From: Lentisphaeria bacterium
GTDB taxonomy: Bacteria; Verrucomicrobiota; Lentisphaeria; Oligosphaerales; PUNB01
DNA: 33,809 nt
Reading direction: 5' to 3'
NCBI GenBank assembly: GCA_007130365.1
Contig: SLSR01000032.1
Location: forward strand, 1-33,809
Below are positions 12,200 to 26,649 of this stretch, one piece after another; position 1 is the stretch's first letter, and every line of letters begins with the position of its first letter. The notes beneath the pieces are model-generated. The model saw nothing but the letters and a program-made list of their open reading frames with translations, was not told the DNA's origin and did not search any database. Made by a program: the position numbers and the translations under genes.

Positions 12200-12847
12200 G
12201 TGTCCGACCTGATTCCCAAACACGGCGGCTATCGCAAGCTGAAGAGTTTTCAGGTGGCGCAGTTGTGTTATGATGTAACGGTACGATTTTGCGAACGCTA
12301 TGTGGATCGCTTCAGTCGGACAAAGGACCAGATGGTTCAGGCGGCGCGGAGCGGGGTGCAGAATATCGCCGAGGGGTCGCAGGCTTCGGCGACTTCGAAG
12401 AAAACCGAGTTGAAGCTGACGCAGGTGGCGCGGGCGAGTCTGGAAGAACTGAAACTGGACTACGAAGATTTTCTGCGGCAGCGGGGACTGGTGCAATGGG
12501 AGCGTGAAAACCCGCACCGGCAGGAATTGATTGACCGGCGATGTCAAACCGCCGATGAGGTGGCGGCCTGGATTGTGGACACGGTAAAAAAATGTGGACT
12601 CGATGGACAGAGTGGACGCAGTGGACAAGCCGATGCGCCGTCCACCCAGTCCACCAAGTCCTCCAAGTCCACACCGTCCATTTTGTCCACCAAAATCTAC
12701 CCGGAGTTTTCGGCCAACGCCGCATTGGTTTTGCTCGGGGTCGCCTGTTCCCTGCTCGACCGGCAGGTCGAACGCCTGGCGCGGGATTTTGAGAATGAAG
12801 GCGGTTTTACAGAACGGCTTTACCGGGTAAGAAGCCAAAACCGTTAA
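12200..12847 (+). CDS. four-helix-bundle protein (23S rRNA intervening-sequence protein family) with the 'four helix bundle suffix' domain
   Basis: HGGYRKLKSFQVAQLCYDVTVRFCERY...SRTKDQMVQAARSGVQNIAEGSQASATSKKTELKLTQVARASLEEL...DYEDFLRQRGL matches my recollection of this family. GTG start at 12200, with GGAGG 8 nt upstream. Confidence 0.85.
   Translation: MSDLIPKHGGYRKLKSFQVAQLCYDVTVRFCERYVDRFSRTKDQMVQAARSGVQNIAEGSQASATSKKTELKLTQVARASLEELKLDYEDFLRQRGLVQWERENPHRQELIDRRCQTADEVAAWIVDTVKKCGLDGQSGRSGQADAPSTQSTKSSKSTPSILSTKIYPEFSANAALVLLGVACSLLDRQVERLARDFENEGGFTERLYRVRSQNR
12594..12690. repeat. mirrored 9-nt-periodic hexamer array inside the CDS: GTGGAC x4, then GTCCAC x6
   Basis: GTGGAC-type units at 12594, 12603 (ATGGAC), 12612 and 12621. 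GTCCAC-type units at 12640, 12649, 12658 (GTCCTC), 12667, 12676 (GTCCAT) and 12685. Spacing is strictly 9 nt within each half. The array encodes the low-complexity linker GLDGQSGRSGQA...STQSTKSSKSTPSILSTK. Confidence 0.7.
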
Positions 12848-12904: not shown

Positions 12905-13052
12905 GTATTATAGTATATTATACTTTACTTCACTATAAATTACTGCACTATACTAGTATAAATCCGGGTCAGGCACCTGCCCAGTTCAACCGGCCGCCCT
13001 GTAGGAAAGAGAACCCCGACCGCTTGACACTGCAAAAAAGTATAGTATAGTA
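12905..13052. promoter_or_regulatory. AT-rich spacer with TAGTATA-type repeats (candidate iteron/operator array)
   Basis: TATAGTATA at 12909-12917 and 13041-13049. A perfect 12-bp palindrome, TATACTAGTATA, at 12949-12960. CACTATA at 12931-12937 and 12946-12952. The region is clearly AT-rich within a GC-rich window. Confidence 0.45.
13024..13051 (+). promoter_or_regulatory. candidate sigma-70 promoter of the wHTH/FtsZ-like operon
   Basis: TTGACA at 13024-13029, a 16-nt spacer, then TATAGT at 13046-13051. The AAGGA RBS and the GTG at 13081 follow about 25 nt downstream. The -10 element overlaps one TAGTATA repeat. Confidence 0.45.
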
Positions 13053-13080: not shown

Positions 13081-13431
13081 GTGGGTGTGGAAAGAGATTT
13101 CGAGCACAAGCTGTTTCGCGAGCAGGTCGGGGGTCTGCTGGAGGCGCATTTTCTGATCCTCTACTGGGCGGCGCTGGCTGAAGATCGAAAGCGCCGCTAC
13201 AACATCACCAACTGCTTCGACGACCTGAAGGCGCAGACCATCACCCGCACCAAGCAAACCGCGACCGCTCTGGTCGAAGCCCTGCAGGCTCTGCGCTTTC
13301 TCGATATCCGCGACGAAGGCAACCGCAAAAACGTCTATATCACTCCGTACGGGGCGAAAGCCCTGGAATCAATGATCCTGAACCAAACCTATTCTCCGCA
13401 AAAATCGCAATTTCTGGAGGTGCAATCATGA
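13081..13431 (+). CDS. small winged-helix DNA-binding protein (MarR/ArsR-like fold); candidate adaptor for the downstream FtsZ-like GTPase
   Basis: 116 aa. It shows a helix-turn-helix plus wing pattern: ITRTKQTATALVEALQALRFLDIRDEGNRKNVYITPYGAKAL. GTG start; 13087 is an alternative. The stop overlaps the next start in ATGA (13428-13431). Confidence 0.65.
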   Translation: MGVERDFEHKLFREQVGGLLEAHFLILYWAALAEDRKRRYNITNCFDDLKAQTITRTKQTATALVEALQALRFLDIRDEGNRKNVYITPYGAKALESMILNQTYSPQKSQFLEVQS

Positions 13432-14525
13432 CAGTCGGAATCGGCGGCGGCGGCGGCAAGCTGGCTTATGAACTGGATCCCCAATGCACGGTGGTCAACG
13501 TCTCGGAAGCGGAACTGCGCAAGCTGCCGACCGAGTCGCGCATCCTGGCCACGGTCCATTCTGCGCGCGGCCAAATGCGCGGCTCGCGCAAGGATCCGCA
13601 AATCGGCAGGGACGCCTTTCTCTCGGTGCGCGAGGAGCTGCTGCATCTGGCGCAGGGCGAGCTGGTCTTCTGCTCGACCGGCGGCGGCACCGGCAACGGC
13701 ATCGCCTCCGGCCTGCTGGCGGAACTGAGCGGCCGCGATCATGTCGCGCCGGCCGAAAAGACCTCGTTCGCCCTGATTCTGCCCTATGCCAAGCTGGAGC
13801 CGGCGGAATTCGTCGACAACACCATTGCCTTTCTGCAAGGCCCGTTGAGCGAGGCGATCGACAGTGGCAACACCGGCAACATCTTTCTCTTTTCCAATCG
13901 TCTGAAGTTCGAGACCCGCAGCTCCGAGGCCGACTACAACCGCGCCCTGGTCGACACTCTGATTCAATATCGGGCGATTCCGCGCAAGGGCGACGAGTGC
14001 AGACTGCTGGACGGCCACATCGACTATGAAGACTTCGCCCTGTACAGCGCCAAGCCCTATTTCAACCATTACACCAGCTTCGCCTTCAACCCCGAGGAAG
14101 GCTATGAAAAGCAATTCCAGGCCAACCTCAATCCCTACCTCCTGCCGCCGGAGAACCCCATCGAGGCGCTGTTCCTGCTGGAGGCGCCGCCGAACGGCGC
14201 GGCAACTCCGTTCTACGACATTCTGGAACACTTCGCCAAAGAGAACGTGAGCCCGGTTTTCGGCGTGGTCGAGAACCCGCAGGTCGAGCAGTATCACCTG
14301 ACCGTTTCGGTGCTCTATTCGCGCAAGCCCATGGAGCTGGTCGAGGACTTCAACCAGGTTTCCCACCGGCACACTCAGGCCAGGGTGCGCAAGTCTCTTG
14401 AGCAGCATGTGCCGCTGCCCAGACTGCAAGTCAACCTGGAAAGCGAGGCCAAGCGGGCAGGGCGACAGCGCGGCGCGGCCGACGAGGATGTGCTCAAGGT
14501 TTTACGCCGACTCGGCAAACTGTAG
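13428..14525 (+). CDS. divergent FtsZ/tubulin-superfamily GTPase (not in a dcw context)
   Basis: T1 loop GIGGGGGK. T4 signature STGGGTGNG. T7 loop LLDGHIDYEDF. FtsZ-like blocks NVSEAELRKL, DPQIGRDAF and IFLFSNRL occur in the canonical order. GGAGG lies 7 nt upstream of the ATG. 365 aa. Confidence 0.85.
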   Translation: MTVGIGGGGGKLAYELDPQCTVVNVSEAELRKLPTESRILATVHSARGQMRGSRKDPQIGRDAFLSVREELLHLAQGELVFCSTGGGTGNGIASGLLAELSGRDHVAPAEKTSFALILPYAKLEPAEFVDNTIAFLQGPLSEAIDSGNTGNIFLFSNRLKFETRSSEADYNRALVDTLIQYRAIPRKGDECRLLDGHIDYEDFALYSAKPYFNHYTSFAFNPEEGYEKQFQANLNPYLLPPENPIEALFLLEAPPNGAATPFYDILEHFAKENVSPVFGVVENPQVEQYHLTVSVLYSRKPMELVEDFNQVSHRHTQARVRKSLEQHVPLPRLQVNLESEAKRAGRQRGAADEDVLKVLRRLGKL

Positions 14526-14530
14526 AACCC

Positions 14531-14555
14531 GCGCCCCTGCGGGGCGCCGTTTTCC
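14531..14555 (+). terminator. rho-independent terminator after the FtsZ-like gene
   Basis: GCGCCCC-TGC-GGGGCGC, a 7-bp GC stem, followed by CGTTTTCC. It begins 6 nt after the stop codon. Confidence 0.6.
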
Positions 14556-14649
14556 TGATTAATTCATGCGAATTCGGCCATGAATCATTCATGAGGGCTG
14601 AAAGCTGAAGTCGGAGGGTGCTGGGTTCCGAGGTTCTGAGTTTGAAACT

Positions 14650-14745
14650 GCGCCGAAGGCGCTTTGGAGTGCGGTGGCCTGGCCCCGCTTTTGTATAGCC
14701 TCTATCGGAAAGCGGCGCCAGGTCGCCGCACTCCAAAGATGCTTC
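14650..14745. repeat. long imperfect palindrome (REP-like element) between convergent genes
   Basis: The arms run about 14662-14699 and 14702-14738. Their core is CTTTGGAGTGCGGTGGCCTGGC (14662-14683) against GCCAGGTCGCCGCACTCCAAAG (14717-14738). Each arm is about 38 nt, with roughly 6 mismatches. The two mirror-image track ORFs (MECGGLAPL... on plus, MECGDLAPL... on minus) are translations of this palindrome. Confidence 0.7.
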
Positions 14746-14770
14746 GCATCAGCCACTGCAGCGGCGCGGG

Positions 14771-16789: not shown

Positions 16790-17894
16790 TTATTTCTGAT
16801 GGCGCAGCATGGCCTCGATAAACAGATCTATTTCACCGTCGAGAACATTCCCGACATTCGAAGTCTGCACCTCGGTCCGTAGATCCTTGACCATTTGATA
16901 GGGGTGCAGGACATAGGAGCGGATCTGGTTGCCCCAGGCGTTTTCGCTCTTCTCGCCATATTCCGCATCGCGCTCCCGGTTTCTCTTCTCCTCTTCGCGC
17001 TCGTGCATTTTAGCCTTGAGGATCTTCATCGCCTTGGCCCGGTTCTTGTGCTGCGAGCGTTCCTGCTGACAGGCCACGACGATCCCGGTCGGCAGGTGGG
17101 TGATGCGCACCGCGCTGTCGGTGCGATTGACATGCTGGCCACCGGCGCCGCTGGAACGATAAGTGTCGATGCGCAAATCCGCCTCTTCGATGGCAATCTG
17201 AATGTCATCGTCGACTTCGGCCACCACATCGACCGCGGCGAACGAAGTATGACGGCGCTGGTTGCTGTCGAACGGCGAAATGCGCACCAGGCGATGAACC
17301 CCCCGTTCGTGCTTCAAATAGCCATAGGCGTACTCGCCGGAGACGATCATGGTGACGTTTTTTACGCCGGCTTCGTCGCCCGCCTGACAGTCCACGGTTT
17401 CGAGCGAGAATTCGTGCTTTTCAGCCCAGTGCGAATACATCCGCAGGAGCATCTCGGCCCAGTCGCAGGACTCGGTGCCGCCGGCTCCGGCGTGAATGGA
17501 AATAATCGCGTTGTTCGGGTCGCTGGAGCCGCCGAGGAAGCTGAGCAGTTCAAGTCGGTCCAAATCGCCGACTATGGCAGACCAGACACTGTCCGCTTCG
17601 CGCAGCAGCTCGGCCGACTCTTCCGCATCGCCTGCCGCCAACTCTCCGAGCACCTTGAAGTCTTCAAACCGGGCCGCCAGCTTTTCGAACGGCTGAACGA
17701 TAGAGCGCGCCTGCTTCAGGCGCGCCACCGTCTGCTGTGCCGCTTCCTGGTCGTTCCAGAAGTCGGGCTGGCTCATGGCCTCTTCGAGAGTGGTCAACTC
17801 CTGCCGCCGTTTGGCGAGGTCAAAGAAACCCCCTCAAGTCATCGAGCCGTCTCCTGCCCTGACTTTCATATTCCGTGAATTCTTCAATATTCAT
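16790..17894 (-). CDS. prfB: peptide chain release factor 2, with a programmed +1 frameshift
   Basis: The track shows only 16790..17797. The ATG at 17894 gives MNIEEFTEYESQGRRRLDDLRGFL, then an in-frame TGA at 17822-17820 within AGGGGGTTT CTT TGA C. A +1 shift joins it to DLAKRRQELTTLEEAMSQPDFW... Downstream are the SPF-equivalent region and GGQHVNRTDSAVRITH. Confidence 0.93.
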
Positions 17895-18031
17895 GATATT
17901 GAATATATCCAGGCTTGAAGAAATATCCAGGAACCGCAAGTCTATCAGGGTAATTCCCGGGAAAGTCGTCATCGAAATCGAACGTGTGCTGTCGTCGATC
18001 CCGATAGCGATTTCGAGGATGGAAAGATATC

Positions 18032-26572: not shown

Positions 26573-26649
26573 TGGTCGGGGCGAGAGGATTTGAACCTCC
26601 GGCCTCTGCGTCCCGAACGCAGCGCTCTGCCAGACTGAGCCACGCCCCG
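26573..26649 (-). tRNA. tRNA-Pro (anticodon CGG), CCA encoded
   Basis: The reverse complement folds by hand as CGGGGCG-TG-GCTC-AGTCTGGCA-GAGC-G-CTGCG-TTCGGGA-CGCAG-AGGCC-GGAGG-TTCAAAT-CCTCT-CGCCCCG-A-CCA. 77 nt, with anticodon loop U-CGG-G (G37) and a GTTCAAAT T-loop. Confidence 0.93.

Follow-up and report, generated by a model that had tools for sequence, protein, structure and literature searches.

A putative chromosomal TubZRC-like module in Lentisphaerota and Kiritimatiellota

In a 33.8-kb stretch of DNA from a Lentisphaeria bacterium (33,809 nucleotides; referred to here as the window), a small winged-helix protein, a coupled TubZ-like GTPase, and a split set of AGT(A/G)T repeats probably make up a self-contained chromosomal module of the TubZRC type. 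The initial annotation of this DNA had asked whether the small protein is a TubR-like adaptor. That reading is now supported by the fold of the protein, the co-occurrence of the two genes, reciprocal profile matches, the TubZ-like features and tail of the GTPase, and the location of the repeats at the promoter. Of the refuting conditions listed in that annotation, those open to computational analysis all came out in favor of the reading. DNA binding by the small protein and its contact with the GTPase are inferred and have no direct demonstration.

RESULTS

The TubR-like gene (positions 13081 to 13431, forward strand) encodes 116 amino acids (aa) when read from the GTG at 13081; a second possible GTG start, at 13087, would yield 114 aa, the length of the closest database homologue (P0001). 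The ORF of 116 aa that had been noted upstream of the GTPase gene is a real and strongly conserved gene, with 268 homologues and 26 invariant columns in an alignment of 53 sequences (A1). Its TGA stop codon (13429 to 13431) overlaps the ATG of the GTPase gene (13428 to 13430) in an ATGA, and the GGAGG Shine-Dalgarno sequence of the GTPase gene (13416 to 13420, forward strand; 7 nt ahead of the ATG) falls in the 3' end of the small gene, at its conserved ...FLE codons (CTGGAGG), both as the initial annotation had described. Since this geometry recurs across 78 homologous loci, it is not a chance feature of a single genome. The distance from stop codon to ATG is −4 nt at 39 of the 78 loci, −1 nt at 5, and +1 to +4 nt at 34, with no larger gap, and a Shine-Dalgarno-like motif is found inside the small gene's 3' end at 77 of them. 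The annotation had proposed examining whether the two genes co-occur across genomes; they are adjacent in every testable genome, whichever gene is used as the anchor (79/79 and 71/71). The overlapping stop and start codons would keep the synthesis of the small protein and the GTPase coupled, an inference drawn from the observed geometry. Six nucleotides past the GTPase stop codon, an intrinsic-terminator-like hairpin with 7 G-C pairs and a T-rich tail (14531 to 14557, forward strand) marks the end of the two-gene operon.

The operon is preceded by a sigma-70-type promoter (13024 to 13051, forward strand; TTGACA, 16 nt, TATAGT; 11 of 12 matches) and by two blocks of pentamer repeats. The distal, tubC-like block (12906 to 12960, no strand assigned), which was delineated by repeat analysis and has homologous blocks elsewhere, comprises about 11 pentamer units with a 5-bp period. 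It contains, in order, TAGTA/TATTA, six in-phase ACT units (at 12922, 12927, 12932, 12942, 12947, and 12952), and the palindromic CTATACTAGTATA. The proximal block (13039 to 13051, forward strand) consists of three in-phase units, AGTAT-AGTAT-AGT, runs in the opposite orientation to the distal block (inverted repeats I1 to I7), and overlaps the −10 hexamer; we regard it as a candidate operator, for which there are no binding data. The upstream repeats to which the initial annotation had alluded are thus borne out: AGTNNAGTNNAGT occurs three times in the 33.8-kb window, always within 12922 to 13051, against an expectation of 0.01.

Similar repeats recur at homologous loci. The 8-mer AGTATAGT is present in 43 of 76 upstream regions and in 14 of 2,440 control windows, and the triple-pentamer motif occurs at 3.39 per kb upstream of the operon versus 0.008 per kb elsewhere (i.e., an about 400-fold enrichment), every match counted as elsewhere being likewise located upstream of the operon. 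At 64 of the 76 loci, the operon is preceded by one or more blocks with a minimum of three in-phase units, and two blocks are common; the arrays comprise up to 8 units, are frequently divided into two blocks, and reach −350 bp. Promoters of the form TTGACA-16/17-TAnnnT adjoin or underlie the repeats at many loci. An overlap of repeats and promoter was found at 15 of the 47 loci with a detectable promoter and is characteristic of the window's clade, not universal. At AT-rich Victivallales loci, inspection by eye suggests that the blocks immediately precede the −35 box. The DNA ahead of tubR in pBM400 contains no motif similar to the AGTAT repeats, and an Rfam search of the locus in the window returned nothing.

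A helix-turn-helix followed by a wing had been guessed for the small protein from the peptide TRTKQTATALVEALQALRFLDIRDEGNRKNVYITPYG (residues 55 to 91). The AlphaFold2 model (pLDDT, 94.9) agrees with this guess and predicts a winged helix with the topology H-H-H-H-β-β-H. On the basis of the model and the alignment, the recognition helix comprises residues 58 to 70, with an invariant TRTKQ at its N terminus, and the β-hairpin wing comprises residues 74 to 87, with invariant N81 and R82 at its tip. The structural comparison with TubR, MarR, and ArsR that the initial annotation had suggested was performed with Foldseek, and it points to a predicted DNA-binding winged helix whose best global matches are TubR proteins. 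The TubR of pBM400 (4asn_A) superposes on the model with a TMt of 0.79 and an rmsd of 2.9 Å. Phage G gp137, the gene of which immediately precedes an FtsZ-like gene, gives a TMt of 0.79 and an rmsd of 2.2 Å, and phage c-st TubR holds rank 6, among the top viral matches. MarR structures match only at an rmsd of 9 to 11 Å, although the Foldseek E values of MarR and ArsR (about 3e-4 to 3e-3) are slightly better than those of TubR.

At the sequence level, the initial annotation saw no recognizable similarity to TubR, a statement that is contradicted by profile methods. When the family profile was compared with all PDB sequences, TubR 4asn was the sole match below an E value of 0.1 (E, 1.1e-3; full length), and hhalign comparisons of the family with Firmicute TubR alignments gave probabilities of 94.6% and 94.0% (E, about 1e-7). 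Conversely, with an HMM of five Firmicute TubRs as the query, all 80 small proteins ranked above every other of 3,659 ORFs (E, 4.4e-5 for the window protein and 0.24 for the best non-member). The similarity is weak (about 20% identity; 21 to 32 bits), and winged-helix-turn-helix proteins are all ultimately related. With the same moderate confidence that we attach to the module as a whole, we interpret the small protein from these profiles and its predicted fold as a distant yet genuine TubR homologue, the similarity being weak but specific and reciprocal.

Other searches gave no competing identity. A profile search of 1.84 billion representative proteins with the small protein yielded only 13 genuine clusters, none of them an intermediate toward Firmicute TubR; its top match (P0241) is spurious, being a 7,727-aa repeat surface protein with 58 copies of a TNTFDDL-like motif. 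Pfam and NCBIfam searches with the small protein returned nothing significant, and an HLH match (E, 0.006; 18 residues) was likewise rejected as spurious. DUF6293_C, another winged-helix Pfam family, matches half of the family members weakly; we did not adopt it as the identity of the protein, as only weak winged-helix similarity is involved. The gathering scores of the MarR and ArsR-SmtB family HMMs were not reached (MarR_2 appeared in 3 of 53 members at E values of at least 0.015), and Pfam detected no HTH_20/ArsR match among the family members.

The second gene (13428 to 14525, forward strand) encodes a tailed, TubZ-like GTPase of 365 aa belonging to the tubulin/FtsZ superfamily. Its STGGGTGNG G-box and T7-type D199-x-x-D202 motif are invariant in the family, and PF00091 was detected in 56 of the 57 members examined with Pfam. 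Among structures, the top Foldseek match of the GTPase model is Bacillus cereus TubZ 4ei7 (E, 6e-17; TMq, 0.71; 383 columns), whereas FtsZ structures reach a TMq of 0.53 to 0.63 over about 325 columns. Among PDB sequences, the GTPase profile gives equivalent bit scores for FtsZ (30.1) and TubZ (28.7); the longest match is TubZ/RepX, and the top matches for the N-terminal 105 residues are FtsZ chains. The hhalign probability against pBM400-type TubZ is 94%, for the N-terminal domain only. As far as profiles and a predicted model can tell, the GTPase stands equally far from FtsZ and TubZ in sequence, with its clade unresolved, and is TubZ-like by fold. Its assignment to FtsZl-1, of the Tubulin_2 family described by Makarova and Koonin in 2010 (PMC2875224), was considered and rejected; Pfam detected only PF00091, and no Tubulin_2, in the 57 members.

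The GTPase model contains a long C-terminal helix (residues 301 to 326) followed by a linker and tail of low pLDDT (residues 327 to 365), features that are known from the predicted model alone. The tail ends in a near-invariant, amphipathic, and basic peptide, ..(I/V)LxVL(R/K)RLGK(L/I), which forms a strongly amphipathic basic helix (µH, 0.83). This peptide could be a membrane anchor instead of a TubR-binding tail.

The module is chromosomal. Its genes map to complete chromosomes of 1.9 and 3.1 Mb as well as to contigs as long as 5.7 Mb, with a single copy in each locus recovered. More than 100 species-level genomes carry the pair; they belong to the sister lineages Lentisphaerota and Kiritimatiellota and include the cultured Oligosphaera ethanolica DSM 24202 (locus L009) and genomes of Lentisphaera and Pontiella. 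Each of the two proteins shows about 45% divergence; their rates are similar and their distances congruent (r = 0.76). This mirror-tree correlation shows co-inheritance; it cannot separate interaction from shared phylogeny, and we do not treat it as evidence of contact. The module appears to be vertically inherited. Firmicute TubZRC systems reside on plasmids and phages, whereas this module is chromosomal and extends across the Lentisphaerota and Kiritimatiellota. The chromosomal, lineage-wide nature of the module, which is its main difference from TubZRC, had been overlooked in the initial annotation.

The genes flanking the pair in the window are housekeeping genes, encoding 2-oxoacid dehydrogenase E1/E2/E3, transketolase, and RF2, and the upstream gene encodes a four-helix-bundle (23S rRNA IVP-type) protein. 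Conservation of the neighborhood is limited to the pair itself, without mobile genes that travel with it, and no conserved third gene (i.e., TubY-like) was found nearby in the neighborhoods compared. A Ser/Thr kinase gene follows the GTPase gene in a subset of 26 loci. At L009, the sole locus whose flanking genes were checked with Pfam, the upstream neighbor is a transposase. In a BLAST-level search for the GTPase, neither the 72,556 plasmids nor the 50,697 phages examined gave a match. Since the module is chromosomal, sits among housekeeping genes, and lacks any counterpart on known plasmids or phages, no separate replicon for it to partition is obvious; one defining trait of a partition system, namely, carriage by a low-copy plasmid or prophage that TubR partitions, is absent.

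DISCUSSION

In characterized systems, tubC always lies upstream of tubR, consists of blocks of direct or inverted repeats, and covers the promoter, and the TubR-tubC complex acts both as a repressor of tubRZ and as a ligand of the TubZ tail (PMC6009700, PMC7762940). The Bacillus plasmid systems (pBM400, also pBtoxis and pXO1-like) resemble the window in having a winged-helix protein gene of ~100 aa followed by that of a ~370-aa tubulin-like GTPase, upstream repeat blocks at the promoter, and a GTPase with a long C-terminal helix and a tail. Their small proteins are linked to ours by reciprocal profiles, and 4asn and B. cereus TubZ are among or are the best structural matches. The initial annotation had remarked that the size, gene order, coupling, and tailed GTPase echo type III logic, and the layout of pBM400 tubRZ in Priestia megaterium is indeed identical (101 aa and 374 aa; 4-nt overlap; the same order and sizes as the window pair). 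The differences are that the window repeats are 5-bp-periodic AGTAT, unlike the pBM400 upstream region; that identity to pBM400 is only about 20%; that the tail terminates in an amphipathic peptide that is nearly invariant, whereas that of Bacillus TubZ is merely basic and disordered; that no TubY-like gene lies near the window module; and that the small-protein family is far more conserved than the plasmid TubR proteins.

Phage systems provide a second comparison. The tubC of phage c-st is a split centromere of 5-bp iterons over part of the promoter (PMC6009700), and with this iteron organization the c-st TubZRC(Y) system comes closest to the pentamer-periodic blocks in the window. The TubR of c-st and gp137 of Bacillus phage G (gp137/gp138) are among the top structural matches of the small protein. 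These systems are, however, phage-borne, and their iterons differ (TTGAC and A/TGAA); the small protein modeled here has two N-terminal helices that distinguish it from their TubRs, and the GTPase has no sequence-level match to phage records. A precedent for a chromosome-encoded TubZ-type GTPase exists in the TubZ/TubY of some Clostridia (PMC7762940), but these loci have TubY and lack TubR, and DNA segregation by them is considered unlikely, whereas the window has TubR-like and tubC-like elements and no TubY. The MarR and ArsR-SmtB autorepressors have the winged-helix fold in common with the small protein and, as is likely here, an autoregulatory site at their own promoter. They differ in having no linkage to a cytoskeletal GTPase and in using palindromic operators in place of multi-unit arrays.

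The initial annotation had offered, as an alternative, that the small protein is simply an autoregulator of the operon; this does not exclude an adaptor role, because TubR is both. A stricter form remains possible, although we are inclined to doubt it: the small protein would be a dedicated winged-helix autorepressor without adaptor function, the repeats would be its operator, and the GTPase would act independently of DNA, e.g., as a filament tethered to the membrane through the amphipathic helix at its C terminus, with a part in division, cell shape, or organization of the envelope. The proximal block does overlap the −10 box in the window and its closest relatives, and a chromosomal, apparently vertically inherited module has no separate replicon to partition. 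The amphipathic and basic GTPase tail resembles membrane-targeting helices, with the peptides of MinD and FtsA as the comparison, and a role in the cell cycle or cytoskeleton is hinted at by the Ser/Thr kinase gene that follows the GTPase gene at 26 loci. The chromosomal TubZ and TubY of some Clostridia are also thought not to segregate DNA (PMC7762940). However, a simple operator would not require repeat arrays that reach 8 units and are commonly divided into two blocks extending to −350 bp; the specific, reciprocal similarity points to TubR and not to regulator families; and the absolute linkage and near-universal stop/start overlap suggest that the two proteins are stoichiometric partners. 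In bona fide TubZRC, moreover, autoregulation and adaptor function coexist (PMC6009700).

It is very unlikely that the GTPase is a cell-division FtsZ or a divisome paralogue accompanied by an MraZ-like regulator. The weak matches to the Pfam Tubulin/FtsZ and TIGR ftsZ models and the FtsZ chains that head the PDB matches of the N-terminal 105 residues would fit such an identity, but the protein scores only 19.1 bits against the TIGR00065 (ftsZ) cut-off of 295, Pfam found no FtsZ_C domain in any of the 57 members, the genes lie outside any dcw cluster, and the best fold match, long C-terminal helix included, is TubZ; a canonical FtsZ has been reported in Lentisphaera araneosa (PMC5147048). We consider it extremely unlikely that an integrated plasmid or prophage left the pair behind as a partition cassette without host function. 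Such an origin could be suspected from the plasmid- or phage-borne nature of classical TubZRC (PMC6009700, PMC9871819), the transposase upstream at L009, and the four-helix-bundle protein gene upstream in the window. It is difficult to reconcile with the spread of the pair over two sister lineages (more than 100 species-level genomes) with congruent divergence of both proteins, with the 26 invariant columns among 53 small proteins, or with the absence of mobile genes conserved alongside the pair. The dehydrogenase, transketolase, and RF2 genes that flank the pair in the window, and the lack of any match on the plasmids and phages searched, also speak against it.

If the TubZRC-like explanation holds, dimers of the small protein would bind the repeat blocks cooperatively, an inference based on homology, on the conserved residues, and on where the motif lies, and would contact DNA through two invariant elements, the TRTKQ that caps the recognition helix and the NR at the wing tip. 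The resulting nucleoprotein complex would cover the −10 box or flank the promoter and so autoregulate the operon; this step is also inferred, and it is the most secure of the functional steps. By analogy only, polymerizing or treadmilling GTPase filaments might then capture the complex through the conserved C-terminal tail, and this capture, on the same analogy, might couple a chromosomal locus to a cytomotive filament. Going further, one could envisage a native, vertically inherited, tubulin-based machine for positioning chromosomal DNA in Lentisphaerota and Kiritimatiellota, in which the AGTAT array is a centromere moved by treadmilling TubZ-like filaments; we put this forward as a tentative proposal that may well prove wrong.

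TubZ was described as "plasmidic, Firmicutes" in a 2023 survey of the FtsZ/tubulin family (PMC9871819), and the literature that we searched contained no link of TubZ or TubR to Lentisphaerota or Kiritimatiellota. A complete chromosomal TubR-TubZ-repeat module in two sister PVC lineages would widen the phylogenetic range of the system, and names are now available for about 270 and 310 database clusters annotated as "hypothetical protein." The chromosome-positioning machine proposed above, if true, would be the first type III (i.e., tubulin-driven) system dedicated to a bacterial chromosome and not to a plasmid or phage. The module would raise the question of what role a tubulin-type cytomotive filament plays at a chromosomal locus in free-living bacteria. 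Since cultured hosts exist, and since the cis site, the candidate DNA-binding protein, and the tail peptide are precisely defined, this question is directly testable.

Organization of the two-gene operon

The open reading frame (ORF) proposed in the initial annotation as a TubR-like adaptor gene is present at 13081-13431 (+) and encodes 116 aa from GTG 13081; an alternative GTG at 13087 would yield 114 aa, the length of the closest database homologue. Its reported coupling to the 365-aa tubulin/FtsZ-superfamily GTPase ORF (13428-14525, +) was also borne out: the TGA at 13429-13431 overlaps the GTPase ATG at 13428-13430 as ATGA, and GGAGG (13416-13420) lies 7 nt ahead of that ATG. Since a near-consensus sigma-70 promoter (TTGACA, 16 nt, TATAGT; 13024-13051) precedes the pair and a G+C-rich hairpin with a T-rich tail (14531-14547) follows it, the two genes constitute their own operon. 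The flanks are housekeeping genes (i.e., 2-oxoacid dehydrogenase E1/E2/E3 upstream; transketolase and RF2, convergent, downstream). Directly upstream of the operon, a gene at 12200-12847 (+) encodes a four-helix-bundle protein of the 23S rRNA intervening-sequence type with a TIGR04258 "suffix" domain and a Ser/Thr/Lys-rich insert; this gene is not conserved beside the pair in other genomes.

The window contains several other features. The RF2 gene (prfB; 16790-17797, -) has a canonical programmed +1 frameshift site (AGGGGG TTT CTT TGA C), with a short upstream frame starting from an ATG near 17894 (frameshift region, 17816-17896, -). The stretch bounded by the operon terminator and the transketolase 3' end contains an imperfect 45-nt inverted repeat (14654-14746; 80% complementary, 3-nt loop). 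In spurious ORFs, each of its arms encodes an ECGxLAPL...RRTPK-like peptide, and the element could represent a repeated extragenic palindrome or terminate transcription in both directions. The sole Rfam match in the window is a single tRNA gene (26576-26649, -).

Linkage of the gene pair across genomes

Pattern scanning across 185,579 species genomes yielded 103 loci. Judging from their record titles, the 80 that were retrieved comprise 57 Lentisphaerota-type, 10 Kiritimatiellota-type, and 6 "Verrucomicrobia" loci and a few probably mis-binned MAGs; among them are Oligosphaera ethanolica DSM 24202, a cultured organism, and two complete chromosomes (1.9 and 3.1 Mb). Co-occurrence of the two genes, on which the initial annotation had made the partnership depend, held throughout: the small gene immediately precedes that of the GTPase in all 79 testable loci, and a scan anchored on the small gene instead gave adjacency in 71 of 71. 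The two genes are spaced, stop to start, by -4 nt in 39 loci, by -1 nt in 5, and by +1 to +4 nt in 34, and a Shine-Dalgarno-like motif lies inside the final codons of the small gene in 77 of 78 loci; the conserved C-terminal ...FLE of the small protein is partly explained by the embedded CTGGAGG. One locus (L095; CAIXRA010000067.1) is the only one with a gap of ~160 nt, versus ≤4 nt elsewhere.

Nothing further is conserved in the neighborhood of the pair, except for a Hanks-type Ser/Thr kinase gene directly 3' of the GTPase gene on the same strand in 26 of the 80 loci (e.g., L009:7190-8218, +, in O. ethanolica; Pfam Pkinase, E 2e-28). The kinase-bearing loci belong to a subclade containing O. 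ethanolica, and the kinase, absent from the window, may regulate the filament system. No GTPase relatives were detected at the BLAST level on 72,556 plasmids or 50,697 phages.

The pair also occurs in a few bins labelled as unrelated phyla, i.e., MAGs labelled Myxococcota or Deltaproteobacteria (L048, L063, and L078) and bins labelled Bacteroidaceae, Anaerovoracaceae, and Blautia (L051, L066, and L124). Gut "cleanbin" contigs are near-identical to the Lentisphaeraceae locus L068 at the gene junction and therefore probably mis-binned; the Myxococcota-labelled contigs could reflect mis-binning or horizontal transfer.

The small protein and TubR

The 268 homologues of the small protein come from Lentisphaerae, Victivallales, Kiritimatiellaeota, and Verrucomicrobiota MAGs and are without exception unnamed ("hypothetical"); the majority are ~108 aa, with 57-74% identity to the window protein. 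An alignment of 53 sequences contains 26 invariant columns, including YNITNxFDDLK, TRTKQ, and an NR pair. The AlphaFold2 model from this alignment (pLDDT 94.9; H-H-H-H-β-β-H) agrees with the earlier guess of a helix-turn-helix plus wing: the recognition helix (58-70) is capped at its N terminus by TRTKQ, and the tip of the β-hairpin wing carries N81 and R82. The protein is thus real, conserved, and a winged helix.

No recognizable similarity to TubR had been seen initially, but profile methods do detect it. The family profile gave a single match below E 0.1 among all 177,635 distinct PDB sequences, i.e., TubR of Bacillus megaterium pBM400 (4asn_A; E 1.1e-3, aligned end to end). With an alignment of pBM400 TubR and three plasmid relatives recovered by tblastn, hhalign returned 94.6% probability (E 7e-8; 90 columns), and 94.0% after addition of phage G gp137. 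A reciprocal HMM of these five Firmicute proteins only, run without filters against 3,659 ORFs (all of at least 60 aa in the window and 80 related loci), placed exactly the 80 small proteins on top (E 2e-8 to 0.19; window protein, 4.4e-5; best unrelated ORF, 0.24).

In the proposed Foldseek comparison with TubR, MarR, and ArsR, TubR 4asn had the highest TM-scores among the matches listed (TMq 0.62, TMt 0.79, rmsd 2.9 Å, 20% identity) and ranked with the best global fits. E-values were marginally better for MarR and ArsR proteins, but MarR superpositions were poor (rmsd 9-11 Å). In a viral structure library, the best match was Bacillus phage G gp137 (E 1.7e-4, TMt 0.79, rmsd 2.2 Å), with phage c-st TubR at rank 6. 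Since gp137, an unannotated 98-aa protein, directly abuts gp138, a "putative FtsZ-like" gene, the blind search had reached another protein in the TubR position. This megaphage region (L086:5390-6817; JN638751.1 78389-79816) looks like an unannotated TubR/TubZ pair.

These similarities carry the caveat that identity to TubR is only about 20%. To our knowledge, all winged-helix domains are related to one another, and half of the small-protein members weakly match an unrelated winged-helix Pfam family. A profile search of 1.84 billion representative proteins found no intermediates; the family stands as a tight island, comprising 13 clusters at 50% identity. A 7,727-aa protein in that library (P0241; E 5e-99) was rejected, as this giant Thr/Val/Ser-rich repeat protein owes its score solely to repeats (58 copies of a short TVTNTFDDLN motif); summed repeat scores can look like homology.

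The partner GTPase

The GTPase has 309 homologues of near-constant length (~365 aa) in the same taxa. Its family matches only Tubulin/FtsZ PF00091 in Pfam (56 of 57 members), without FtsZ_C or Tubulin_2 domains in any of the 57; the G-box STGGGTGNG and a T7-type D199-x-x-D202 are invariant. The AlphaFold2 model (pLDDT 86.4) has a two-domain core, a 26-residue helix (301-326), and a low-confidence tail. Its best Foldseek match is Bacillus cereus TubZ (4ei7; E 6e-17, TMq 0.71, 383 aligned columns); Bacillus thuringiensis TubZ reaches TMq 0.67-0.69, and FtsZ structures reach 0.53-0.63 over ~325 columns. The sequence is equidistant from FtsZ and TubZ, but the longest match is to TubZ; we therefore describe the GTPase as TubZ-like in its modelled fold without assigning it to a clade. 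The C-terminal 12 residues, (D/E)(I/V)LxVL(R/K)RLGK(L/I), are near-invariant and make up a basic helix with strong amphipathicity (µH 0.83).

A division FtsZ is disfavored by scores far under the FtsZ equivalog cut-off, the missing FtsZ_C, and the housekeeping flanks; a canonical FtsZ has been reported in L. araneosa (PMC5147048). FtsZl-1 is disfavored by the missing Tubulin_2 domain.

Conserved upstream repeats

The upstream repeats suspected as a binding site are real and form two blocks of 5-bp period 5' of the small gene. The distal block (12906-12960) is built of ~11 pentamers, six of them in-phase ACT units; its proximal counterpart (13039-13051; AGTAT-AGTAT-AGT), in the opposite orientation, overlaps the -10 hexamer. 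All three copies of AGTNNAGTNNAGT in the 33.8-kb window lie inside these blocks (0.01 expected), and an unbiased 8-mer count across loci recovered the same motif. AGTATAGT occurs in 43 of 76 upstream regions versus 14 of 2,440 control windows. The density of triple pentamers is 3.39 per kb in the upstream 400 bp versus 0.008 per kb elsewhere, and the six hits elsewhere all precede this operon too, at a greater distance. Blocks of at least three in-phase units (one or more per locus) are found in 64 of 76 loci, many having a longer distal block (4-8 units) and a promoter-proximal one. The overlap with the -10 box belongs to the window's clade; in AT-rich Victivallales loci with a recognizable promoter, the blocks apparently lie (by eye) just 5' of the -35 box.

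This architecture is the same as that reported for tubC, which is invariably 5' of tubR and divided into direct- or inverted-repeat blocks, with 5-bp iterons in phage c-st. The TubR complex partly covers the promoter, acts as a repressor of tubRZ, and binds the TubZ tail (PMC6009700, PMC7762940).

Interpretation

Given the observed homology and fold of the small protein, the TubZ-like fold of its partner, their obligate adjacency and coupling geometry, and the conserved promoter-associated repeats, the most economical interpretation is a complete TubZRC-like module, which we consider probable. The small protein would bind the upstream repeats, this binding would autoregulate the operon, and the GTPase tail would capture the nucleoprotein complex. 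That the small protein is a TubR homologue with these binding and regulatory roles, both inferred, we hold with good confidence; for the adaptor step, also an inference, the balance tips only slightly in favor. The main rival, in which the small protein is a regulator and the GTPase a DNA-independent, possibly membrane-anchored filament, seems unlikely to us, although it is consistent with the amphipathic tail and the location on the chromosome, and chromosomal TubZ/TubY pairs of Clostridia offer a precedent (PMC7762940). A decaying mobile-element remnant is disfavored, since both proteins are ~45% diverged with congruent distances (r = 0.76) and no mobile genes accompany the pair.

The module is distantly homologous to TubZRC and would work alike, but it fails one defining feature, residence on a partitioned plasmid or phage. 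Further differences are the sequence of the iterons, the chemistry of the tail, the lack of TubY, and a far higher conservation. A 2023 family-wide survey described TubZ as plasmidic and Firmicute only, with PVC lineages unmentioned (PMC9871819), and the literature searched contained nothing tying TubZ or TubR to Lentisphaerota or Kiritimatiellota. A native system in which a tubulin-type filament drives the positioning or segregation of a chromosomal locus, while doubtful, is not excluded.
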